A DNA stretch of 64,000 nucleotides. It comes from Chloroflexota bacterium (GTDB lineage: Bacteria; Chloroflexota; Limnocylindria; Limnocylindrales; CSP1-4). A program made the position numbers and the translations under genes. The DNA lies in contig JAUJOH010000002.1 in the NCBI GenBank assembly GCA_030447745.1, forward strand, positions 119,516 through 183,515. Direction: 5' to 3'. Positions 36,008-49,764 of the stretch are shown piece after piece. The first letter of the stretch is position 1; each line of letters begins with the position of its first letter. The notes beneath the pieces are model-generated. The model did no database searches. It saw nothing but the letters and a program-made list of their open reading frames with translations, and had not been told where the DNA came from.

Positions 36008-36705
36008 TCAGACCGGCGCCTCGCGCCGGGCCGGCGCCGGCTCGCCCGGCACGACGTCGTCGAGGGGCACGTCGACCGTCCCGGGCCGCTCGAGGACGGC
36101 GGCCAGGACGTCCGGGATCGCGTCGACCGAGTTCCAGTCGACGGGCAGGCGGACCGCCACGTCCTGCGGCCGGACGGCGGCGTCGCCGGCTGGACCGCGG
36201 GCGGGATCGGCCGTCCACTCGACCGTCACCGCGCCGGAGGTGAAGCCCGCGCCGAAGGCGACGATGCACACCCGGTCGCCGACCGCGACCCGCCCCTCGT
36301 TGACGGCCTCAGCCAGCGCGATCGGGACCGAGGCCGCCGACGTGTTCCCGTACCGGTCCAGGTTGACGAACATCCTGTCCATCGGAAGCCCGAGGCCCTT
36401 CGCCACCGCCTCGATGATCCGGATATTGGCCTGGTGCGGGATGAACAGGTCGACGTCGTCGGGCTGGAGACCGGAGCGCCGGATCGAGCCGAGGGCCGTC
36501 GTGGCGAGCGTCCGGGTCGCGAACCGGTACGTCTCCTTGCCCTCCATCCGGACGAAGTGCTCGCCGCGGGCGATCGTTCCGGCCGACGGCGGCGCCTTCG
36601 CGCCACCGGCCGGCAGCCAGATCATGTAGGCGCCCTGCGGCTCGGTCGTCAGCTCGATGCCGAGGCTGCCGCCGGGCTGGTCCGAGGCGGACAGCACGAC
36701 CGCCA
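36008..36705 (-). pseudogene. fabH: C-terminal half of beta-ketoacyl-ACP synthase III, fused in frame to a foreign ORF
   Basis: AVVLSAS, MEGKETYRFA, HQANIRI, GNTSAASVP and FGAGFT. Confidence 0.9.
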
Positions 36706-39100
36706 CCGCCGCCAGCCGCACGCGGCGCTTGATGACGTGGAACGCGGGACGGGCATTAGCCACGCCCCAGCTTTCAAGCGGCGAGACCGTAATCGCCGCG
36801 GCCCGGCCTCCTCCGCGCACGGTGGGAGCCGGAGGCCGGATCGCCATTTGCGGAGCCGCCGGTTGCGGAACTGGTGGAAGCGCCGTGGCCGGCGACGACG
36901 CTCGCGGAGAGAGCGACGGCTTGAGCGGCCCCAGCGGCGCTGCCGAAGGCGTTCCCGGCAGCGCCGGCGAAGGCAGCGGCACCTGCGCCGCGCCCATTGC
37001 CGGGATGGCGGTCAGCGCGCCCTCCGGCAGCGAGAAGCCAGCGGACGGAGCCTTCTTCTCGGACTCCTCGGCGCGCCGCGCTCTGTCCACCATGCTCAGC
37101 CGCAGCGGATTGGAATGGCCCGGCAGTGGCTGACGTCGGCGCGCGCCGCTGATTTGCGGCAACGGTGTCGCGCCGGCGGCGACACTGGGCGTTGGCCGGC
37201 CTGAAGTCGCGCCGGAGGTTGTCAGGGCAGCGCCGCGGCGGGGGCCGCGACGCGGGCCGGAAGCCACACGTGGCGCATCCGGCGTGGCGCGGTCGGCGTT
37301 GTCGCCCGACAGCGGGCGCTCCGTGGTGCGCGGTGGCGTGACACGTCCGACGCGTGGCCCGGTGCGGGCGCCGCGCGCGATTCTGCTGCCGGTCGCGCCG
37401 GGGACTGTAGCTCGTGACGAAGCGTCCGCGTTTGGGGCGAGGGTCATGCGGCCAGGGCCGAAGGCGGGCGCCGGCACGGAGTCTTTACGCGCCGGTCGCT
37501 CAGTAGGCCGTTCGGCGGGCAGCGGCAGCGCGCTCAGGCGCCGCGACGCGTTCGAAGTACTCGCAGTCGTTGGAGCCTTCGCTGGAGCCTTCGCCGGGCG
37601 GCGCGGCGGAACCAACGTTTTGGGGCCGGCGGATCGCCGCGGCACGACGGGCATAGGCGCTACCATCCGCGCCGGCGGCGCGATGTGCGTGAGCGGCGGC
37701 GCGACCGCGCAGGGCGCAAGGCGCGCCACGCGGGGCGCCGGCGACTTGACGGATGGGCGTTTGGCCGGTGTGCGGCGCTGAGCAGGGCGCGCGGCGCGGC
37801 GTGGCGTGGTGCGCTTCGACGGCGCGACAGCCTCGAAAGCGGGCGGCATCGCGCGCTCGAGCAGCGGCGTGGAGGGCACGGCCTGCGGCCCGGTCGCCCG
37901 TGGCTGCTTCGGGTTCGTCTTCGCGCTGGCTGCTAAACGCCCTTTGTTGCCGGACTTGCCACCGTTGGACTTGACGCCGTTGGGCTTGACGCTGGCGCTG
38001 CTGCGCGTGCCGCCGCGCGCCGCACTCTGCGCGATGCCGCCGGACGCGCCGGTGCCGCTCTCGGCAGACGCGGCGGCTGCGGCGCTTTGCAGTTGTGGAA
38101 TCCAGGTCGGATTCAGCGTGCGATTGGCGATGCCGATGGTCACCGGCTCGGCGCGGCCTTCGTTGTTCAGCGAGTCTATGGCCCGCGCATCCAAGCGATA
38201 CATTCCGTCGGGCACCAGGCGCGTGTCGAACTCAAACACATACGGAGGCTGGTTGAGCATACTTGCGCGAACCGTCTTGCCGATGCGCAGCGACCCATCC
38301 GCCGCCGGCGTGCCCGAACTGAGCGAAATCCACACGTATTTGATGCCGAACAGGTTGTCAACGGCCTTGAGCTGGAACTTGAACTGGTCTTTCAGCAGAT
38401 CGCCGTTGTGGACGTTGAGCCATTGCAGGGCGGGTGGCGTGGTGTCGGCGCGCTTGCCGTTGCTGATGTAAATCGAGACTTCCGCCTGGCCGATGTAGCC
38501 CTGAGTGTCGGTGACTTTGACGAGCAGTTTGTGCGAGCCGTCGGCGTAGCGCGTGGTATCGAACTTGAAGCCGCTGGAAGGCTGCGAGTTCAGCGGCACC
38601 GGCCCGCCCACCGTTTCCGAGCGCCCGTCCACGAAAATCTCGACCGTGCTGGCCGGATTGCCCCGCGACTCGACGGCGATCAGAATCGGCGCTTCCCGGC
38701 CTCGCAGCAGGTCGGCGTGGCTCGGCTGCAAAATGCTGACGACCGGGCCGACTTGGGCGCTGGGACGGATGCTCTGCGCCAGCAGCAGCGGCGCGTCCGC
38801 ACCGGACCCGGACGAAGCGGCCCCAGTCGCGGCGTCGGGCAGCACATCGGCCCACACGGGCCGCGCCGTCATCGCTTCGGCGAGCAGGCCGCCGGCCACC
38901 AGCACCCGGACGGCTCCTGCTCCGAGTACTCGATTTCCAAGCGTTCGACCATCGAACGATCGACCAAACGACACAATGGCCGGCGCGGCGATGATTGGCG
39001 CGGCGGTTGCGGCGGGCGCGGCTGCGGCGGGCGCCGGGCGTCTGGCGTCACGGTTCTGCAAAGCGCGGTTTCGAGAGCTGCGGGGTTGGGATGGCCGCAT
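36706..39100 (-). CDS. Foreign, 3'-truncated gene for a putative cell-surface protein: two Ig-like domains, long Pro/Ala/Arg-rich stalk, possible start of a LysM domain
   Basis: GGGAGGAGG SD; repeated FDTTRYADGSH / FDTRLVPDGMY; DTTPP; ends HVIKRRVRLAAVA. More A/T-ending codons than the flanks. Confidence 0.7.
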
Positions 39101-39212
39101 AGGCGATGTCCTCCTCCCAAGGCGAACGAGTCAGAAACGGGTCGGAGATGAACGGGCGCGGCGGGCGCGGCGACAAGCATCCGCCTGCTCCCGGCTGCTC
39201 GGGAGTGTTCTG

Positions 39213-40232
39213 GCTGCCGTCGCCAAACGGAGGATGCGGGATGTTCCGATCGGTGTAGTCGAGACGCCGCGCGTGAGCGTCTCTGCGCCGATGTCGTGGC
39301 GGCGTCGCCGTCTGAGGCCGCGGGCGGGATCGGCCGTGGCGACCCGTAGACGAAGCCCTGCCGGGCGCCATGCGTCATGGCGGCCGCGTTCCGGCCGACG
39401 GCCTCCTTGACCAGCGCGCCGTCGCGCGGCGTCCAGTAGTCCGGATCAGCCTCGCAGCTCGGATCAGGTCGATGTCCGGGTCGCCGTCCGGATCGCGCCT
39501 CATCACCGCGGCCATCGACGCGCCGTCGTCTCGTGCGCCGCCGCGGCCGTTCCGATCGGGCGCAGCCCGCCGGCTCCCTTGGTCCGGCGTCGACGATCCA
39601 CTCGTCGGATGGTGTCGGGCGAGGCCGACGTCGCGGAGCTGGGCCGGCGCGACACGCGTCCACTCGTGCGAGCGGTGTCGTCCATCCGTTCGTGGCGGCT
39701 CCACCGCGCCGGCCGGCACGTCGCCGGCTGAACCGGCGGCTGCTTCGCGACCAGCTGGCAGCTTTCGGCGACGACGCGCGGTGCGTCGACCCGGTTCATG
39801 CCGCGGTCCAGGCGGATCTCGTTGAACGCCGTCATTGCCTCGATCAGGTTCCGATCACCTGGTCGGCGGCGGAATGACGCGACCTTGGACGCCGGCAAGG
39901 ACGTACGGCGGCGAGCCGGGATCTCGTTGAACAGCGTCGTAGACGATGCCATGTCGGCGGCGCCTTGACCGATGACCAGGCCAGGGCGTCGATGGCATCC
40001 AGGTCCGGCGTCAGCGTGGCGACGTGATCGGAGTCGACGCGGCCACGGCGTCGACGTGCGCCGCCGCGACGCGCCGTTCGCGGATCCCGGTCCGGCTCAC
40101 GATCCACTCGTCGGATGTGTCGACCATCCGCTCGAGGTCGGCGTTCGTCAGGACGCCGGCGGGCGCGTACCGGCCCCAGCCGGTGACGTGCGCCCAGCGT
40201 CGCGGCGACAGCCCGGTGCGTCCGTCGTTCAC
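39213..40232 (-). pseudogene. fabH: N-terminal half of fabH, degraded and containing a garbled duplicate of the accB-fabH junction
   Basis: [27 protein letters not shown], later GFVYG and RLDYTDRN..FGDG in shifting frames. Confidence 0.8.
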
Positions 40233-40846
40233 AGCGGCTCCACCTCGATCAGCGGCTGCTTCGCCTTGACCAGCTGGCCGCTTTCGGCGACGACGCGCAC
40301 GACCCGGCCGGCAAGGTCAGACTTGATCTCGTTGAACAGCTTCATTGCCTCGATCAGGCCGATCACCTGGCCGGCGGCGACCTCCCCGTCGACGCGGACG
40401 TACGGCGGCGAGCCGGGCGCCGGTGAGGCGTAGAAGATGCCCGTCAGCGGCGCCTTGACCGATGGTCGGGCCGGGGCGGCAGTGTCGTCCGTGGCGGCCG
40501 TGATCGCCGACGCGGACCCCCCCTCGACGCCCGCGGCGGCCGGAGCGGCGGCCGCGGCCGCAGCGGCCGTAGCGGCGATGTCGGAAGGCTTCCGGAGGAC
40601 GAGCGACGTGCCCCCGGCGGCCACCTCGAGCTCCACCAGATCGCTCCGGTCGAGGACGCCAGCGAGTCGGTCGACGAGCTCCAGCAGCGACGCCGCCGTG
40701 CCGTCGACGGCAGGCTCCGTCAGGGCGGTGTCCGCGCCGGCGGCCGCGAGCGTCTCCGGGACCGGCTGGTCGATCGAGGTCGGGTCGCTGGCACCGGTCG
40801 CCGACGCGTCCGCCCCGGGCCCGGGGTCGTCGGTCAAGGCTGCCAC
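40229..40846 (-). CDS. accB: Biotin carboxyl carrier protein of acetyl-CoA carboxylase
   Basis: [10 protein letters not shown], thumb [10 protein letters not shown] and intact EAMK biotinylation motif. Confidence 0.92.
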
Positions 40847-42099
40847 CGTCGGAAGACGAGGGTCGTGTTCTGGCCGCCGAACCCGAACGAGTTCGAGATC
40901 GCGACCTCGATGTCGCGCCGGCCGGCCGACTTCGGCGTCAGGTCGAGCCCGTCCGACCCCGGGTCCGGGTCGTCGAGATTGATGGTCGGTGGGACGCAGC
41001 CGGTCCGGATCGCCTGGATCGTGGCAATCGCCTCGATCGCTCCCGCCGCCCCGAGCGTGTGGCCGATCATCGACTTGTTGGCCGTGATCGCCACCTCGCC
41101 GACGTGGTCGCCGAGGATGGCGCGCATCGCGTCCAGCTCGGTCCGGTCGCCCTCCGGGGTGGACGTGGCGTGGGCGTTGATGTGGCCGACCTCCGACGGA
41201 TCGATGCCGCCCTTCTCGAGCGCACGCCGCGCCGCGCGGACGGCCCCGATCCCGCCCGGTGCCGGGAGGGTGATGTGCGACGCGTCCGCGGAGGCGCCGT
41301 AGCCGACCATCTCGGCCAGCGGCTCCGCGCCGCGCGCCTCCGCCGACTCGAGCGACTCGAGGACGAGCACGCCCGCCCCCTCACCGATCACGAACCCGTC
41401 GCGGCCGCGGTCGAACGGGCGCGACGCGCCGGCGGGGTCGTCGTTGCGCGTCGACAGCGCCCGCATCGAGGCGAAGCCGCCGACCACGGGCTCCTGGATG
41501 GCCGCCTCGCTGCCGCCTGCCAGCATGATCTCTGCGTCACCGCGACGGATCGTCTCCCAGGCCTCGCCGATGGCGTGGCCGCCGGTCGCGCACGCCGACG
41601 AGGTCGCGAAGTTCGGGCCGGTCATCCCGTAGCTGATCGCGATCTGCCCCGCGCCCACGTTGGGGATGCTCATGGGCACGAAGAACGGGCTGATCCGATC
41701 CGGGCCACGGAGCGCGTTCATGGAGATGCCCTCGACGAGCGTCCCGACGCCGCCCAGGCCGGTACCCAGGATGACGCCGGTCGCGTCCGCGAGCTCGCCC
41801 TCGAGCCGGGCCGGCAACCCGGCGTGATCGAGCGCCTCGCGTGCGGTCACCAGCGCGAACTGGATGTAGCGGTCCGTCCGCCGCAGCTCCTTGCGCTCGA
41901 GGACGCCGGAGGCGTCCAGCTCGCGCACCTCGCCGGCCATCCGCGACGCGATCCGGGACGGGTCGAACGACTCGATGAGCCGGACGCCCGAGCGTCCGGC
42001 GACGAGGCCGTCCCACGTCGACGCCACGTCGTTCCCCAGCGCGCTCACGGAGCCCATGCCGGTCACGACGACGCGGCGGGTGCCGTTCGGCCCCGTCAT
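40834..42099 (-). CDS. fabF: Beta-ketoacyl-ACP synthase II
   Basis: RRVVVTGMG, SACATG, NAHATST, KSMIGHTLGAAG and NSFGFGG. Confidence 0.95.
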   Translation of the reverse strand: MTGPNGTRRVVVTGMGSVSALGNDVASTWDGLVAGRSGVRLIESFDPSRIASRMAGEVRELDASGVLERKELRRTDRYIQFALVTAREALDHAGLPARLEGELADATGVILGTGLGGVGTLVEGISMNALRGPDRISPFFVPMSIPNVGAGQIAISYGMTGPNFATSSACATGGHAIGEAWETIRRGDAEIMLAGGSEAAIQEPVVGGFASMRALSTRNDDPAGASRPFDRGRDGFVIGEGAGVLVLESLESAEARGAEPLAEMVGYGASADASHITLPAPGGIGAVRAARRALEKGGIDPSEVGHINAHATSTPEGDRTELDAMRAILGDHVGEVAITANKSMIGHTLGAAGAIEAIATIQAIRTGCVPPTINLDDPDPGSDGLDLTPKSAGRRDIEVAISNSFGFGGQNTTLVFRRWQP

Positions 42100-42839
42100 C
42101 GGACGGGCTTCCCGGTCCGCACGGTCGCCGCCCGGTAGACGTCACCCGGCAGCCCGCGCGACGAGATGGCGTTGGCGACGGTGAGGGCGTCGAAGGAGGT
42201 GCGCTTGATCTCTGCCGTCACGTTCGCGCCTGCAATGTCGACGACCGCCCACGAGGCGGTCGGTTCGCCGTCGAAGACGTAGCCGGCGGACCCGTCGTTG
42301 ACGATCATCTTCCAGCCGAAGTCGCGGACCTCGGGCAGGTGGGTGTGTCCGCAGCAGATGACGCGGGCGTCCGTGCCGGAGACGCGCTCCAGCACGACCG
42401 ACGCGTCGAGGGCCGGGTCGAAGCCGGCCGTCTGCGAGCCGGGCGAGGCGTGCGTCAGGAGCACGAGCGTGTCGTCGAGCCAGAGACGGCGCTCGGCCGG
42501 CAACCGGCGGAGCCACTCCAGCTGGCCGTCGTCGAGCGCGTCGTGTGCCCACTCGGCGGCGCGCCGAAAGGCATCGGGAGCGCCGTCCGAGAACCACGGG
42601 AACGCGGCCGCGTAGTCGAAGTCCGCGACGGCAATGTCCGTGTTGCCCTGGACGACGAGCGCGCCGGCCGCCTCGAGCTCGCGGACGGCGTCGACGGTCG
42701 CTGCGGGGTCCGGGCCGTTCATCACCAGGTCGCCGGCCACGAGCACGGCGTCTGGCGCGGCGGCCGTCACGGCGCGCCGAACCGCCTCCAGCGCGACGGC
42801 GTTCCCGTGGACGTCGGACAGGACCGCGATGCGGCTCAC
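42096..42839 (-). CDS. Calcineurin-like metallophosphoesterase (YfcE/MJ0936-like)
   Basis: SDVHGN, GDLV, QGNTD, THAS, CGHTH and NDGS. Confidence 0.9.
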   Translation of the reverse strand: MSRIAVLSDVHGNAVALEAVRRAVTAAAPDAVLVAGDLVMNGPDPAATVDAVRELEAAGALVVQGNTDIAVADFDYAAAFPWFSDGAPDAFRRAAEWAHDALDDGQLEWLRRLPAERRLWLDDTLVLLTHASPGSQTAGFDPALDASVVLERVSGTDARVICCGHTHLPEVRDFGWKMIVNDGSAGYVFDGEPTASWAVVDIAGANVTAEIKRTSFDALTVANAISSRGLPGDVYRAATVRTGKPVR

Positions 42840-43399
42840 CCGAGTGTCCCGGCCGGCGGGATGACGAAGCTGAGCAGGCCCTCGCAGGCCACTTCGCGGT
42901 CCACGGTCGCGATGCCGCGACCCCTGCCGAACCGCGAGCCGAGCTTCTCCATGGTCACCTCGAGCCGGAGCGTGTCGCCCGGGACGACGACCCGCTTGAA
43001 GCGCACCGCGTCGATGCCGGCAAAGAGCCCGATGCGGTCGCCGAACCCCGGCTGCTTGGCGACGTAGACGGCCATCGTCTGGGCGAGCGCCTCGATCTGG
43101 AGCACGCCCGGCATGACCGGGAGACCCGGGAAGTGGCCGGCGAAGAACCACTCGGAGGCGGTGACGCCCTTCTGTCCCACGATCCGCCGCGCGGCTTGGT
43201 CGTACTCGAGGATGCGGTCGACCAGCAGGAACGGCGCCCGGTGCGGGATGAGCGCCTCGATCTCGCGGGTCGTATGGAGGATGCCCGGGCGGCGAAGCGG
43301 GTCGGCCGCCCAGCTGCCGGTCGCGGGCGCCACGTCACCCGCCGCGTCGGACGGCGTGGCGGGCGGCGCCGGGGACGGTTCGATCGTGGTCTCGGTCAC
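42836..43399 (-). CDS. fabZ: 3-hydroxyacyl-ACP dehydratase
   Basis: IPHRAPFLLVDRI and GHFPGLPVMPGVLQIEALAQ. Confidence 0.95.
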   Translation of the reverse strand: MTETTIEPSPAPPATPSDAAGDVAPATGSWAADPLRRPGILHTTREIEALIPHRAPFLLVDRILEYDQAARRIVGQKGVTASEWFFAGHFPGLPVMPGVLQIEALAQTMAVYVAKQPGFGDRIGLFAGIDAVRFKRVVVPGDTLRLEVTMEKLGSRFGRGRGIATVDREVACEGLLSFVIPPAGTLG

Positions 43400-43500
43400 G
43401 GGCAGCTCCGATGCGGTCGCGTTCGAGTGTCGCCGTTGACGCGGGTCGCGGAGCGAGGACTGCTTGCAGTCGTGCACCGTCGGGCGGCGTCTCCCGGTGC

Positions 43501-44868
43501 TCAAGCCCGGGCCGCCGCGGCAAGGAACGCCGCACTGCCGACCCGGTCGAGCAGGCTGGTCGTCATCCTGCCGGCGAGGAACGGCTCGGACGCAAGCAGC
43601 GCCTGGTGGATCGGGATGTTGGTCACGACTCCGTCGACCAGGAGCTCGTCGAGCGCGCATCTCGCCCGCGCGATCGCGGCTTCCCGGTCCGGTCCCCACA
43701 CGATCAGCTTGCCGAGCAGGGAGTCGTAGAAGGGCGGCACCTCGTAGCCGGCGTAGAGGTGGCTGTCCATCCGGACCCCGGGTCCGCCGGGCACGAGATA
43801 CCGCTCGACGACGCCCGCGCTCGGGCGGAACTCGTGGTCCGGGTCCTCAGCGTTGATCCGGAACTCGATGGCGTGTCCGCGCAAGGTGACGTCGGCCTGG
43901 CTGAACCCGAGCGGCTCGCCGGCCGCGATCCGGATCTGGGTGGCCACGAGATCGATCCCGGTGAGGACCTCCGTGACCGGGTGCTCGACCTGGATCCGGC
44001 AGTTGATCTCGATGAAGTAGGCGTCGCCGCTCGCGTCGACCAGGAACTCGAGGGTCCCGACGTTCTCGTACCCGGCCGCGACGACCGCCCGGATGGCGCG
44101 CTGCGCGAGGTCCTCGCGCGCCGTCTCGGACAGGGCCGGGGTGGGTGCCTCCTCGAGGATCTTCTGGTGGCGCCGCTGCACGGAGCAGTCGCGCTCGCCG
44201 AGGTGGACGCCCCGCCCGTAGCGGTCGACTGCGACCTGGACCTCGACGTGGCGGTTGTCCTCGAGCCAGCGCTCGAGGTAGAGGGAGTCGTCACCGAAGG
44301 CCGCCTTGGCCTCCGAGCGGCAGACCCGGATCGCGGACTCGAGCTCGCGCGGCGAGCGGACCATTCGCATGCCCTTGCCACCGCCGCCGGCGGACGGCTT
44401 GATCAGAACGGGGTAGCCGATCCGCTCGGCTTCTTCCAGCGCGTGGAGGTCGTCACGGAGCATTCCGGAGCCCGGGATCGTCGGCAGGCCGTGGGCCGCC
44501 AGGAGCCGCCGCGTGCCCTCCTTGCTCGCGAAGCGCTCGAGCACGGCCGCCGGCGGACCGATGAACGTCAGGTCGTGCGCACGGACCACCTCGGCGAACG
44601 CGTCGTCCTCGGAGAGGAACCCGTAACCCGGGTGGATCGCCTCGCAGCCGGTCACGACGGCGGCCGAGATCACGGCGGGGGCCGAGAGGTAGGACCGTCG
44701 CGCGTCCGCCGGCCCGATGCAGATCGCCTCGTCGGCGAGCTGGACGGGCAGGCTCTCGCGGTCCGCCTCGCTGTAGGCGACGACGGCCTCGATGCCCAGC
44801 GTCCGGCAGGCGCGCAGGATGCGGAGCGCGATCTCGCCCCGGTTGGCGACGAGGATCTTCTCGAACAT
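43501..44868 (-). CDS. accC: Acetyl-CoA carboxylase biotin carboxylase subunit
   Basis: KILVANRGEIA, HPGYGFLSE, GGGGKGMR, RDCSVQRRHQK and RIQVEHPVTE. Confidence 0.96.
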   Translation of the reverse strand: MFEKILVANRGEIALRILRACRTLGIEAVVAYSEADRESLPVQLADEAICIGPADARRSYLSAPAVISAAVVTGCEAIHPGYGFLSEDDAFAEVVRAHDLTFIGPPAAVLERFASKEGTRRLLAAHGLPTIPGSGMLRDDLHALEEAERIGYPVLIKPSAGGGGKGMRMVRSPRELESAIRVCRSEAKAAFGDDSLYLERWLEDNRHVEVQVAVDRYGRGVHLGERDCSVQRRHQKILEEAPTPALSETAREDLAQRAIRAVVAAGYENVGTLEFLVDASGDAYFIEINCRIQVEHPVTEVLTGIDLVATQIRIAAGEPLGFSQADVTLRGHAIEFRINAEDPDHEFRPSAGVVERYLVPGGPGVRMDSHLYAGYEVPPFYDSLLGKLIVWGPDREAAIARARCALDELLVDGVVTNIPIHQALLASEPFLAGRMTTSLLDRVGSAAFLAAAARA

Positions 44869-45644
44869 CAGGCGGTTCCGCCGGCCGCGCCGGTCTGGGT
44901 CATCAGCTCGATGGCAACGAGATCCTGTCCGTACTCGACCGTCTCACCGGGTTCGACGAGGATGTCGGCGACGACGCCGTCGGCCGGCGCGACGACCTCC
45001 TGCGGGATCCCGAGCATGTCGATCGCGCCGATGGGATCGCCGGACCGGACGCGCGCGCCGCGTCGCACGTCGCCACGGGCGTGGAAGACGCCGACGGCGG
45101 GCGACGTGGCAACCGCCCGATGCGGGTCCGTGCGGCCGCGGCGGTCCGCCGGACCGCCCGCCGCGACCGGGCGGGGTCCGACCGCCATCGCAGCCGGGGC
45201 GCCGCTGCCGTTCGAGGAGTGCGTGCCGGCCGCCGCGCTGCGCGCAGACCGATGCCGCTCGAGCGCGGTCGGGCCGTGCCCGTGGCCCTCGTGGCCGGGT
45301 TGCTGGCGCGACGGCCGGTCCGTCGAGCGGCGTCCGTCCGCGGGTCCGGTCGCACCCCCGGCGGGACGGCGGAGCCGCACCGTCCACGAATCCTCGCGGA
45401 CCTCGATCGCCCCGCGGCCGGATGCCGCGAGCCTCGCGATCCACGCGGGCAGCAGCTCCGAGACGAGCCGGTCGATGGCGGCGTGGTCCCCCGCCCGGGC
45501 GTCGTCCGTGCGCGCGTGCTCGACGCGTCCTGCGGGCACCGGGCCAACGGGCGCAGCCGTGGCGCCGGTGGGCGCGACACCGCTGGCCGTGGAGCGGTGA
45601 GACGGCCGGGCGTCGTGCCGCGGCTCCGGCATGGTGTCGGACAA
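44868..45644 (-). CDS. BCCP-like biotinyl-fold protein lacking the biotin-attachment lysine
   Basis: SPAVGVF..GDPIGAIDMLGIPQEVVAPADGVVADILVEPGETVEYGQDLVAIE aligns to the AccB C-domain with DMLG in place of EAMK. Confidence 0.8.
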   Translation of the reverse strand: MSDTMPEPRHDARPSHRSTASGVAPTGATAAPVGPVPAGRVEHARTDDARAGDHAAIDRLVSELLPAWIARLAASGRGAIEVREDSWTVRLRRPAGGATGPADGRRSTDRPSRQQPGHEGHGHGPTALERHRSARSAAAGTHSSNGSGAPAAMAVGPRPVAAGGPADRRGRTDPHRAVATSPAVGVFHARGDVRRGARVRSGDPIGAIDMLGIPQEVVAPADGVVADILVEPGETVEYGQDLVAIELMTQTGAAGGTA

Positions 45645-46658
45645 TCAGACCTCCTCGTCGGCGGGCGGCTCCTCGCGGCCGCGCCCCGGGCCCGGCAGCG
45701 CGACACCGGCCATCGACCATCGGCCATGGTCGAGCAGGTTGCGCAGCCGGTCGGTGAGACCGGGTCGGTCCGGCTGGGCAACCGGTGGCGCGGCCACCTC
45801 AGTGTAGGCGCCGAGCTCGCGATAGCGCCGATAGCGACCCTCGACGAGGGCGTCGACCGGGATCGAGGCCAGGACGTCGAGCTGCTCGAGGATCACCGAG
45901 CGAAGTCGGCGCGCCGTCTCCGCGTGGTCGCTGTGGGCGCCCTCGTCCGGCTCCGGGACGACGATGTCGACGACGCCGAGGGCCTGCTGGTCAGCCGCCG
46001 TCATGCGCATCGCGAGCGCCGCGGCCGGCGCCTCGTCGGCGGTCCGCCAGAGGATCGACGCGCAGCCCTCCGGGCTGATGACCGAGTAGACGGCGTTCTC
46101 GAGGGCGATGACGACGTCGCCGCAGGCGATCGCGAGCGCACCCCCGGACCCGCCCTCCCCCGTGATGACCGACACGATCGGCGTCCGCAGGCGGGTCATC
46201 AGGCCGATCGACCGAGCGATCGCGTCGGCGATCCCGCGCTCGTCCGATTCGGGTCCCGGGTGCGCGCCCGGCACGTCCACGAACGAGACCACCGGCAACC
46301 CGAACCGCTCGGCGAGCTCCATCACCCGCATGGCCTTGCGGTACCCCTCCGGGTGCGGCATCCCGAAGTTGCGGCGGATGTTCTCGTCGGTGTCCGCGCC
46401 CTTCTGCTGGCCGACCACGGCGACGCGGCGGTCGCCGATGCGTGCGAAGCCCGCCACGATCGCCGGGTCGTCACCGAAGCCGCGGTCGCCGTGCAGCTCG
46501 ACCCAGTCGTCGGCGAGCGCGGTCACCAGCTCGACCGCCCGCGGCCGTCGCAGGTTGCGCGCGAGCTGGACCCGGGCCCACACGGCGGCCTTGGGGTCCG
46601 CGCCGACGTCCACGGGCGACGGCGTATCCGCGGTCCGCCCGAGCAGCCGCTCAACCAC
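45645..46658 (-). CDS. accA: Acetyl-CoA carboxylase carboxyltransferase alpha subunit
   Basis: ELHGDRGFGDD, FGMPHPEGYRKA, GEGGSGGALA and YSVISPEGCA. Confidence 0.95.
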   Translation of the reverse strand: MVERLLGRTADTPSPVDVGADPKAAVWARVQLARNLRRPRAVELVTALADDWVELHGDRGFGDDPAIVAGFARIGDRRVAVVGQQKGADTDENIRRNFGMPHPEGYRKAMRVMELAERFGLPVVSFVDVPGAHPGPESDERGIADAIARSIGLMTRLRTPIVSVITGEGGSGGALAIACGDVVIALENAVYSVISPEGCASILWRTADEAPAAALAMRMTAADQQALGVVDIVVPEPDEGAHSDHAETARRLRSVILEQLDVLASIPVDALVEGRYRRYRELGAYTEVAAPPVAQPDRPGLTDRLRNLLDHGRWSMAGVALPGPGRGREEPPADEEV

Positions 46659-47721
46659 GCTCCACCTCGCCAGGGTGGCGGCGTCCCGTCGCGGCGGACG
46701 TCGCGGGCGGCGAAGCGGCGGACGCCCGGGCCGTGGCGGGTCGTGGCGAGCCGTCGGGGCCGCTCCGCCCGTCGGCGCTCGCCTCGGGCTCGGGATCGGG
46801 GATGACCCGGTCGGCCAGTGCCGAAAGGAACGAGAGCGGCCGGAAGGCAGGGAGCATCAGCGCGTCCATCGCCTCGCCCGGCACCGCGAGGCTGGCGGGG
46901 GTCAGGTAGGCCAGGAGTGCCGAAAGCTCGCCGCGGAGCTCGGCCCGGGTCACGACCCGGTCGACGAACCCGTGGCGAAAGAGGAACTCCGAGCGCTGGA
47001 AGCCGGGTGGCAGCTCCTGCGCGATCGTGCCGGCCGCGACGCGGGCGCCGGCGAACCCGATCATGGCATTCGGCTCGGCCAGGTTCACGTCGCCGAGGAC
47101 CGCGTACGACGCGAACACGCCGCCCGTCGTCGGGTCCGTCATGACGCTGAGATACGGCACTCGACCGGCCTTGAGCCGCTCGAGCGCCGCAACCGTCTTG
47201 GCCAGCTGCATGAGCGCCAGCGTGCCCTCCTGCATCCGGGCCCCGCCGGAGGCCGAGACCACCACGAGCGGCAGGCGCTCCGCGAGCGCGGCCTCGGCGG
47301 CGCGAGTGACCTTCTCGCCGACGACGCTGCCCATCGAGCCGCCCATGAACCCGAAGTCCATGACGCAGATCGCCACGGCGCGACCCTCGATCGCGCCGGT
47401 TCCCCAGACGGCCGCGTCCCGCATGCCGGTCGCCACCTGCGCGGCGGCGAGACGATCCGGGTAGGGCTTCTGGTCGACGAAGCCCAGCGGGTCGACCGAC
47501 TGGAGGCCGGCGTCGCGCTCGCCGAAGGTGCCGGGGTCGAGGAGCTGCCCGAGCCGCATCGCCGCCGAGAGGCGGAAGTGGTGGCCGCAGCTCGGGCAGA
47601 CGCGCATCACCTTGTCGAGCTGCTTGTTGAACAGCATCTCGTCGCACGACGGGCACTTCGTCCAGAGGTCCGGTGGGTAGGACTCACGCCGCGAGCGGAA
47701 GGACGGCAGCTTGATCGGCAT
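46651..47721 (-). CDS. accD: Acetyl-CoA carboxylase carboxyltransferase beta subunit
   Basis: LWTKCPSC..CPSC Zn finger, FMGGSMG, SGGARMQEG, PTTGGV and FQRSEFL. Confidence 0.95.
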   Translation of the reverse strand: MPIKLPSFRSRRESYPPDLWTKCPSCDEMLFNKQLDKVMRVCPSCGHHFRLSAAMRLGQLLDPGTFGERDAGLQSVDPLGFVDQKPYPDRLAAAQVATGMRDAAVWGTGAIEGRAVAICVMDFGFMGGSMGSVVGEKVTRAAEAALAERLPLVVVSASGGARMQEGTLALMQLAKTVAALERLKAGRVPYLSVMTDPTTGGVFASYAVLGDVNLAEPNAMIGFAGARVAAGTIAQELPPGFQRSEFLFRHGFVDRVVTRAELRGELSALLAYLTPASLAVPGEAMDALMLPAFRPLSFLSALADRVIPDPEPEASADGRSGPDGSPRPATARASAASPPATSAATGRRHPGEVERG

Positions 47722-48222
47722 CAGGAAAGCCCGCGGACGAGGCGAGCCTCTCGTGCCGCCCGCACCGCTCGCGCCATCGGCGAGCGCGGGGCGGGCCGCG
47801 AGCGGCGCCAGGCCATCCACGCTGCGCCAGCGAGCGACAGTGCCGCGGAGGTCAGCGCACCACCCACGAGCAGGGGCCGGACCGAGTGCGCGTCGAGCGG
47901 ATCGAGCGACGCGGCGACGGCGGGCGAGGGCGCACGCAACGGCACCGGCGTCGCCGAGCCGAGGCTCCCGGCGGCCGCCCGGAGGCGCATGGCGCGGGCG
48001 GCCTCGCCGAGCCGAACCGCGAGCCGCTCCTCGAACCGGAACGACGGGTGGACGCGGACGAGGTCATGAGCCAGGCGCGTGGCCGCCAGGCGGATCGCCT
48101 CGACGAGCTGCGCGTCGAACGGCACGTCCGTCGCCCGACGCTCGGCGGCGGCGAGCAGCGCGTCCAGGTAGCCGTCCGTCGAAGCGCCTCGACGTCGAAC
48201 GACTCCGCTCGGGAACGGTCAT
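47721..48222 (-). CDS. Putative membrane-anchored anti-sigma factor; indels near the 5' end
   Basis: ATG overlaps the sigma stop. DGYLDALL and HPSFRFEERLA, then a single TM near the C-terminus. Confidence 0.5.
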
Positions 48223-48846: not shown

Positions 48847-49764
48847 TTACACCGAGGCGCCGGTGGCGGCAGACAGCCGGACGTGCCGGATCTCCCCGAT
48901 CACCACGGTCAGCTCGCCGCCCGCCCGGTCCACCACCACCAGCCCTCCCGAGCTCGCGTCGACGCCGAGCGCCCGCAGGTGCTCCGTATCGCCGTCCGGC
49001 CACTGCACCTCGACCGCGCGGCCCGTGGTGACCTGTCGGGCGTTCCAGTCGGCGAGGTCAGATCGTCCCGCGCGCAGTGCGCGGCGCACGAGCCGGCCGA
49101 GGAAGCCGTCGAGGAGCATCGCCAGGTCGATCGGGCGGCCTCGGGACGCCTCGTGGAGCGACGTCATGCCGGCGGCCAGCTCCGACGGGAAGTCCTCGTA
49201 GCGCCACTCGGCGTTGACGCCGATGCCGACGGCGAGGCGCGGGTCCGGTCCGCCGAGCCCGTCGCTCTCGCCGAGGACGCCGGCCAGCTTGAGGACGGCC
49301 GTGCCGACGCTCGGCGCCGGACTCTCCGACGGCGAAGGCGACGCCGGACCCTCCGAGGGCGAGGGCGACGCCGGACCCTCCGAGGGCGAAGGCGACGGTC
49401 CCGCAGGCCATTCGCCGGAGGATTCGACGACCAGGTCGTTCGGCCACTTCAGCCGGACCGTCCCGTCCGGCAGCCCGGCCACCTCCTCGGCCGCGTCCGC
49501 CATGGCCAGGCTCACGGTCGCGGGGATCCGCCACGTCCGCTCGGGCGGCAGCCACGTCGGGCGGAAGCCGAGTGACAGCAGCAGCGCCGCGCCGCGGGGC
49601 GCGACCCAGGCTCGGCCGGATCGGCCGCGCCCCGCCGTCTGCTCGTCCGCGACGGCCAGGCAGACCTCCGGGATGCCGTCCCCGAGCCAGCCGCGGACGA
49701 CGTCGTTCGTCGACTGGACAACGTCGAAGCGCTGCTGGCGCGACATGAACGGTGCCTCGCTCAC
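48847..49764 (-). CDS. birA: Biotin--acetyl-CoA carboxylase ligase
   Basis: STND, QTAGRGRSGR, LKWPNDL, KLAGVL and IGVN. Confidence 0.92.
   Translation of the reverse strand: MSEAPFMSRQQRFDVVQSTNDVVRGWLGDGIPEVCLAVADEQTAGRGRSGRAWVAPRGAALLLSLGFRPTWLPPERTWRIPATVSLAMADAAEEVAGLPDGTVRLKWPNDLVVESSGEWPAGPSPSPSEGPASPSPSEGPASPSPSESPAPSVGTAVLKLAGVLGESDGLGGPDPRLAVGIGVNAEWRYEDFPSELAAGMTSLHEASRGRPIDLAMLLDGFLGRLVRRALRAGRSDLADWNARQVTTGRAVEVQWPDGDTEHLRALGVDASSGGLVVVDRAGGELTVVIGEIRHVRLSAATGASV
49331..49400. repeat. 27-bp coding tandem repeat (~2.5 copies) inside birA
   Basis: GGCGA(A/G)GGCGACGCCGGACCCTCCGAG repeated, encoding SPSPSEGPA units. Confidence 0.85.

Follow-up and report, generated by a model that had tools for sequence, protein, structure and literature searches.

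A lysine-less paralog of the biotin carboxyl carrier protein in the acetyl-CoA carboxylase operon of Limnocylindria looks like a bacterial counterpart of plant BADC

Introduction

Acetyl-CoA carboxylase (ACC) of plants contains BADC proteins, which have no biotinylation motif and bind both biotin carboxylase (BC) and the biotin carboxyl carrier protein (BCCP); they have been described as unique to the plant enzyme (PMC11926652). Whether BADC is an inhibitor or an assembly 'glue' is disputed (PMC11926652; PMC12873504). Here we analyse a bacterial gene whose product looks like a counterpart of these subunits. The gene lies in a 64,000-nucleotide stretch of DNA from a Chloroflexota bacterium of the class Limnocylindria (assembly GCA_030447745.1, contig JAUJOH010000002.1, positions 119,516 to 183,515), which we call the window. 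We use the working name X for the gene and its product, a lysine-less paralog of BCCP (AccB) encoded between accA and accC (Table 1).

The N-terminal alpha/beta/beta motif of Escherichia coli BCCP has been modelled as a barrel-forming, oligomerising hub that keeps BCCPs in the enzyme filament (PMC11160672). A BCCP can be described by two contact-making parts, this motif and the domain that docks on BC, in addition to the lysine that carries biotin. Our literature search, which did not reach Conrado et al. 2024 or Ye et al. 2020, found no description of a bacterial BCCP without the lysine. A study of the Chloroflexus ACC does not mention one either.

Results

X cannot carry biotin

As judged from alignments and a structure model, X is a catalytically dead paralog of BCCP that has kept the whole BCCP architecture. 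From N to C terminus it consists of a BCCP-type alpha/beta/beta motif, a disordered linker and a biotinyl-domain fold, the last predicted with high confidence. The model is a single-chain AlphaFold2 prediction built on an alignment of 109 homologs, the subgroup to which the window's copy belongs.

The identity of the C-terminal domain is supported by several comparisons. Residues 180-245 match Pfam Biotin_lipoyl (PF00364) with 30 bits against a cut-off of 22.1. A profile made from the 109 homologs matches E. coli BCCP (4hr7_B) with an E-value of 8.4e-12. Foldseek aligns the domain with the BCCP biotinyl domains 1bdo, 2ejf_C and 4hr7_G, with template modelling (TM) scores of 0.82-0.91 and root-mean-square deviations of 1.2-1.6 Å. 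In the AccB equivalog model TIGR00531 (cut-off 115.2 bits), X reaches 37.9 bits and the true AccB of the window 110.9.

What has changed is the hairpin tip. Where AccB reads E-A-M-K-L-F, X reads D-M-L-G-I-P, and the four codons GAC ATG CTC GGG (45009-45020) read cleanly. Glycine 212 occupies the column of the biotinyl lysine. There is no lysine anywhere else in the protein either. Hence the usual lysine amide link is open to neither biotin nor lipoate, and X, as encoded, cannot be biotinylated. The thumb is missing as well: aligned with the window's own AccB or with E. coli BCCP, X shows a 6-residue gap.

Two other identities for the domain were considered and rejected. A lipoyl carrier would need the lysine that X does not have. 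A relative of HlyD/RND adaptors is suggested only by weak matches below cut-off, in which the common part is the barrel-sandwich hairpin.

The contact-making parts are kept

The N-terminal motif (AIDRLVSELLPAWIARLAASGRGAIEVREDSWTVRLRR) is predicted as a helix (residues 47-75) followed by a hairpin (79-92, with strands 79-84 and 87-92), at a predicted local distance difference test score (pLDDT) of about 90. When the N-terminus of X is compared with AccB N-termini from other phyla, hhalign returns a probability of 96.6% and an E-value of 5e-10. By this profile comparison the segment is homologous to the N-terminal motif of AccB. X thus appears to retain both parts with which a BCCP makes its contacts, the N-terminal motif and the AccC-docking domain; only the chemistry is lost.

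The gene is tightly coupled to its neighbours. Read by eye, the TGA stop of accA (45645-45647) directly abuts the TTG start of X (45642-45644). At the other end the TGA of X (44868-44870) and the ATG of accC (44866-44868) have one base in common. The true accB follows further downstream in the same direction.

A sequence-only reading of the window had already described this open reading frame, its coupling to accA and accC and the position of the true accB, and had proposed the biotinyl domain, the change from EAMK to DMLG, the missing thumb and a BCCP-like N-terminus. All of these descriptions hold in our analysis; the N-terminus, for which it had pointed to a resemblance, now has the support of the structure model and of the profile comparison.

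Table 1. Features of the window around X.
Feature	Position	Strand	Details
accD, carboxyltransferase beta with zinc ribbon	46651..47820	(-)	TIGR00515 358 bits, above cut-off; Zn_ribbon_ACC domain
accA, carboxyltransferase alpha	45645..46658	(-)	Pfam ACCA 370 bits; NF004344 369.8 bits, above cut-off
Shine-Dalgarno sequence GGAGG of X	45650..45654	(-)	5 nt upstream of TTG, within last accA codons; sequence reading
X, lysine-less BCCP paralog	44868..45644	(-)	258 aa; TTG start, TGA stop
BCCP-type N-terminal alpha/beta/beta motif of X	45369..45506	(-)	residues 47-92; AlphaFold2, hhalign
His-rich linker motif of X	45207..45332	(-)	residues 105-146; RRxTDRPSRxQPGHxGHGHxPxxLEGHRSAR...HSxNGS
Biotinyl-domain fold of X, without thumb	44904..45119	(-)	residues 176-247; AlphaFold2 pLDDT about 97; Foldseek
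Gly212 codon GGG at biotinyl-lysine position	45009..45011	(-)	sequence reading; column fixed by alignment
accC, biotin carboxylase	43501..44868	(-)	NF006367 647 bits, above cut-off
fabZ, metallophosphoesterase and fabF, which separate accC from accB within one operon-like run	40834..43699	(-)	Pfam FabA, Metallophos_2, ketoacyl-synt
fabZ	42836-43699	(-)	longest ORF (open reading frame); actual start likely later
Metallophosphoesterase	42096-43151	(-)	longest ORF; overlaps fabZ ORF as listed
fabF	40834-42099	(-)	Pfam ketoacyl-synt domain
True accB	40229..40846	(-)	EAMK and thumb intact (alignment); TIGR00531 110.9 bits
Biotin protein ligase, BirA-like	48847..49764	(-)	Pfam BPL_LplA_LipB 48 bits; 3 kb from operon

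X is conserved across Limnocylindria

X has many relatives. More than 2,500 proteins match it. In a scan of species-representative genomes, 337 stretches contained relatives; a second scan that took in more distant members gave 350. Nearly all of the listed scan records are labelled Limnocylindria or unclassified Chloroflexota. The homologs from metagenome-assembled genomes (MAGs) that we looked up exactly are named either 'hypothetical protein' or 'biotin/lipoyl-containing protein', and nothing else.

The substitution is shared by these relatives. Glycine stands at the lysine site in every homolog with a readable hairpin (244 of 244). The domain has no lysine at all in 183 of 258 homologs, and no other lysine is conserved. 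The gene order accD-accA-X-accC-fabZ-phosphoesterase-fabF is found in all 80 related Limnocylindria loci that were fetched, and a true accB with EAMK comes next wherever the flank is long enough. Other orders of the class retain both the gene order and the glycine.

Median pairwise ratios of nonsynonymous to synonymous substitution (dN/dS, NG86) are 0.39 for X, 0.31 for accB, 0.27 for accA and 0.21 for accC, rough values given a dS of 0.6-0.85, near saturation, and a strong GC bias. On this comparative evidence X is conserved and kept by selection and is not a case of local decay. The sequence-only reading had asked whether the change from lysine to glycine and the accA-X-accC order are conserved in relatives, and both are. 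It had also named beforehand a finding that would speak against it, orthologs with an intact Met-Lys (MK) motif; none was found among the readable homologs.

Lysine-less paralogs elsewhere in Chloroflexota and beyond

X is one branch of a family that extends across Chloroflexota, which the sequence-only reading had overlooked, along with lysine-less copies in Brevinematales. We searched a spread of 300 Chloroflexota genomes and fetched and parsed matches from many families. Full-length lysine-less BCCP-like genes occur in at least 14 family-level groups outside Limnocylindria, with G, N, Q, R, A or M at the site of the lysine. Of the 36 lysine-less copies examined from outside Limnocylindria, most come immediately after efp, with the gene order pepP-efp-X'-xseA; beside four of them efp was not detected, in loci that are short. 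All 14 of the other Chloroflexota genomes examined encode a separate AccB with the MK motif, often adjoining accC. In some Chloroflexota lineages the efp-linked copy still has its lysine (loci L175, L185, L186 and L190).

As a control we used 80 loci from a scan with a generic BCCP pattern, mostly ordinary AccB of other phyla, for the MK motif only. The lysine is present in all 74 loci that are not labelled Chloroflexota and absent from all six efp-linked copies of Chloroflexota.

Cultured bacteria carry efp-linked lysine-less copies, namely Thermogemmatispora carboxidivorans PM5 (WP_052888619.1), T. tikiterensis (WP_112427577.1), Dictyobacter aurantiacus (WP_126594981.1), D. arantiisoli (WP_149401227.1) and Ktedonobacteria bacterium brp13 (BCL83359.1). 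The paralogs of cultured Ktedonobacteria read EALN or QSLN at the lysine site (L296-L306). In databases the cultured efp-linked copies are called 'acetyl-CoA carboxylase biotin carboxyl carrier protein' or 'biotin/lipoyl-containing protein'. Judged by the residue at the site, those with the former name cannot be such carriers.

Outside the phylum, four loci of Brevinematales (Spirochaetota; L315, L334, L340 and L347) contain efp, a lysine-less BCCP gene (RVLG) and accC as consecutive genes. A Desantisbacteria locus (L350) has a lysine-less BCCP-like gene with RVMD after efp. A further observation concerns a Rhizobiaceae MAG (L320), in which an accB directly upstream of accC reads IEAMT for IEAMK. 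This is a single case, which may be either an error or a real loss.

X probably descends from an efp-linked copy

We built a maximum-likelihood tree of 120 proteins by a quick search, with SH-aLRT as the only support measure. X of Limnocylindria forms one clade (support 95), which is nested with a support of 93 among the efp-linked lysine-less proteins. The true AccB of the window falls into a separate clade (support 95), together with the second, true AccB of other Chloroflexota. When all 63 lysine-less rows are constrained to a single clade, the tree comes out slightly ahead of the unconstrained one, and the constraint is not rejected (p-AU 0.588). A single old loss of the lysine is therefore possible.

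The efp locus of the window's own genome reads pepP-efp-xseA, with no BCCP-like gene between efp and xseA. Because X is nested among efp-linked copies and its genome has no such copy beside efp, the simplest reading suggests that, in the ancestor of Limnocylindria, a dead copy left its place beside efp and entered the acc operon. Descent from an efp-linked bacterial accB lineage makes common ancestry with BADC seem unlikely; the origin of X is probably independent of the plant proteins.

A conserved His-rich linker in the window's subgroup

The middle of X, about residues 95-170, is predicted to be disordered (pLDDT 50-60). Within it lies a His-rich motif whose columns are invariant or nearly so across the 109 homologs of the subgroup. 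Five histidines are invariant, and the motif is more conserved than the biotinyl-like domain itself. This motif, too, had been overlooked by the sequence-only reading. It occurs in 134 of the 270 homologs retrieved. In the loci compared it is absent from more distant members of Limnocylindria, from other orders of the class and from other Chloroflexota. The motif matches no known family and no known metal site. A metal switch, a pH switch or a docking peptide are guesses at its role.

Neighbouring genes

Several other features of the locus deserve mention. Wherever the flank suffices, the related Limnocylindria loci (L001-L080) retain the calcineurin-like metallophosphoesterase between fabZ and fabF. 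It is an unusual member of a fatty-acid synthesis operon, and of five loci taken from other orders within the class, three gave no match to it. In the BirA-like ligase the conserved parts are separated by a run of near-identical PSPSEGPAS repeats (SPSPSEGPASPSPSEGPASPSPSESPAPS). Besides accC, the window's genome encodes two more biotin carboxylases, each fused to a biotinyl domain (contigs C22, ~398 kb, and C15, ~12 kb); these are probably alpha subunits of acyl-CoA carboxylases.

The gene that follows accB, fabH (36008-40232, minus strand), appears to be interrupted. Two separate pieces, the first ~54 codons (40232-40071) and the C-terminal half (about 36008-36650), correspond to the intact fabH of relatives. 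Between these pieces the window has about 3.4 kb, compared to about 380 bp in relatives. Either a real insertion or an assembly chimera could account for the interruption. Where the insert begins (39734-40016, minus strand), the accB biotinyl domain is present as a partial duplicate, decayed and with a broken frame. This duplicate is collinear with 40253-40506, in patches of 73-91% identity, and reads 'LIEAMTAFNEI' and 'RVVAESCQLVAKQPP'.

Discussion

A non-catalytic partner of the carboxylase

What could a carrier protein that cannot carry anything do in an acc operon? X keeps the contact parts of a BCCP, shares its transcript region with AccA and AccC, and is joined to accC by a stop/start overlap. 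For these reasons we propose that it is a non-catalytic subunit or regulator of acetyl-CoA carboxylase that works like plant BADC, an explanation that we consider probable. The N-terminal motif of X would co-oligomerise with the equivalent motif of the true AccB, and the biotinyl-like domain would dock on AccC at the site used by BCCP. X could thereby set the number of productive AccB domains at the active sites, or it could hold the BC-BCCP subcomplex together. The binding of X to AccC and AccB, and its effect on activity, are both put forward by analogy.

The sequence-only reading had suggested a BADC-like partner that cannot be biotinylated and left open whether it is an analogue or a homologue of BADC. 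The analogy stands, with the glycine invariant, a true accB in the same genome and the acc gene order conserved. It is supported as a way of working, not as membership of the same family.

Some observations weigh against this proposal. The most conserved part of the window's subgroup is the His-rich linker, which a BADC-like mode of action does not explain. The thumb, which has a part in BCCP dimerisation in E. coli and in BADC contact in plants, is lost. In most other Chloroflexota the paralog stands beside efp and not beside acc genes, and only Limnocylindria and Brevinematales have a gene context that joins it to acetyl-CoA carboxylase. The evidence for selection from dN/dS, finally, shares the roughness of those estimates.

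Alternative explanations

The linker invites two other readings. X might be a sensor in which the His-rich segment (QPGHxGHGH...EGHR) is the working part and, by taking up a metal ion or titrating with pH, would switch X between an AccC-binding and a non-binding form. This would be a special case of the explanation that we prefer. Five histidines that do not vary in 109 sequences, in a region otherwise predicted to be disordered, are what one would point to, and the occupancy of plant BC by BCCP and BADC has been suggested to shift with stromal pH (preprint 10.64898/2025.12.30.697075, citing Ye et al. 2020). However, the motif is present in only about half of the homologs and absent from other orders of the class and from other Chloroflexota, and it resembles no known metal site. 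Being limited to a part of the homologs, the linker cannot be the basic function of the family, and we regard a sensor as unlikely. Alternatively, X might act mainly on gene expression, with the very basic, conserved linker (RRxTDRPSR...GHRSAR) binding DNA or mRNA of the operon while the dead domain senses how far AccC is occupied. Autoregulation of accBC in E. coli runs through the N-terminal part of BCCP. The N-terminus of E. coli AccB has been discussed as an expression regulator (PMC11160672). X has kept this motif, and its linker is rich in arginine and invariant in spite of the predicted disorder. Yet none of the Pfam and other family-model matches of X is a nucleic-acid-binding domain, and most members of the wider family lack the basic His-rich linker and still keep the dead domain. 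A role mainly in regulating expression therefore strikes us as quite unlikely.

The remaining two readings deny any link with the carboxylase or any function at all. If X owed its function to the ancestral place behind efp, for example as a partner of EF-P or of translation, its position in the acc operon would be incidental. Most of the copies outside Limnocylindria do lie directly downstream of efp, but so do true AccB proteins with the MK motif in some lineages. The adjacency of efp and accB thus represents an old gene order and not a function. Moreover, X still has the full BCCP architecture, and with it the motif by which BCCPs are held together, and the gene abuts accC in both Limnocylindria and Brevinematales. 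We consider a function unrelated to the carboxylase highly improbable. It is also conceivable that X is a leftover of an accB duplication, now decaying, or that the lysine codon was misread in sequencing or assembly. Duplication followed by decay does happen here, as the broken accB fragment in the window demonstrates. X itself has an intact frame, a glycine and hairpin that are invariant in 244 homologs, a conserved gene order in 80 of 80 loci and a dN/dS well below 1, and its lineage persists across classes of the phylum. Conservation rules out a pseudogene or a sequencing error, and we give this reading practically no credence.

A non-catalytic partner that works like BADC therefore remains the explanation that we favour. 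It can be extended to a wider picture, which we offer only tentatively. Lysine-less pseudo-carriers may be old and recurrent in bacterial heteromeric ACC, with one possibly monophyletic lineage spanning Chloroflexota and similar copies flanked by efp and accC in Brevinematales. The pseudo-carrier of Limnocylindria would have become a stoichiometric, translationally coupled subunit, and in the window's subgroup the His-rich linker would be a pH or metal switch. Control of the BADC type would then have arisen independently in bacteria and plants.

If a bacterial BADC-like family is real, it offers a simpler system in which to settle how a dead carrier subunit controls heteromeric ACC. Its advantages are deep conservation, placement in an operon and presence in cultured Ktedonobacteria. 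Many proteins listed in databases as 'acetyl-CoA carboxylase biotin carboxyl carrier protein' are unable to carry biotin, which matters for metabolic reconstruction in Chloroflexota.

Comparison with known systems

One bacterial protein pair invites comparison by its effect. MSMEG_0435-0436 is non-catalytic, binds a biotin-dependent carboxylase and lowers its activity via the BCCP domains (PMC13012033). It differs from X in having an unrelated KipA/KipI-like fold, and it sequesters biotin instead of mimicking a carrier (PMC13012033). We rejected it as a precedent for a BCCP-like inhibitor on account of this fold (PMC13012033).

AccB itself (TIGR00531; E. coli structures 1bdo and 4hr7) has the same layout as X, in which a flexible linker joins the N-terminal alpha/beta/beta motif to the C-terminal biotinyl domain, and X occupies the classic place of BCCP just upstream of accC. 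In contrast to AccB, X has glycine for the biotinyl lysine, no lysine at all, no thumb and a score of 37.9 bits where the AccB model requires 115.2. The linker of X is conserved and either basic or rich in histidine, whereas that of AccB is rich in proline and alanine.

The closest relatives of X, the efp-linked paralogs of Chloroflexota, share its architecture, the lost lysine, a C-terminal VEYGQ signature and the presence of a separate true AccB in the genome. They differ in location (between efp and xseA, not in the acc operon) and in the residue at the lysine site, which varies. A thumb-like insert is retained in many of them, the His-rich motif is present in none.

The plastid proteins BADC1-3 and X are alike in being BCCP-like, in having a biotinyl-type fold and in having lost the biotinylation lysine. 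In both cases a true BCCP exists in the same system, and in both the protein is placed with components of acetyl-CoA carboxylase. Unlike BADC1-3, X is bacterial, comes from the efp-linked accB lineage of Chloroflexota and is encoded within an accD-accA-X-accC operon. It has no thumb, its linker is invariant and His-rich in the window's subgroup, and its binding to BC and BCCP is putative. With these differences, X looks like a bacterial counterpart of the plant BADC subunits.

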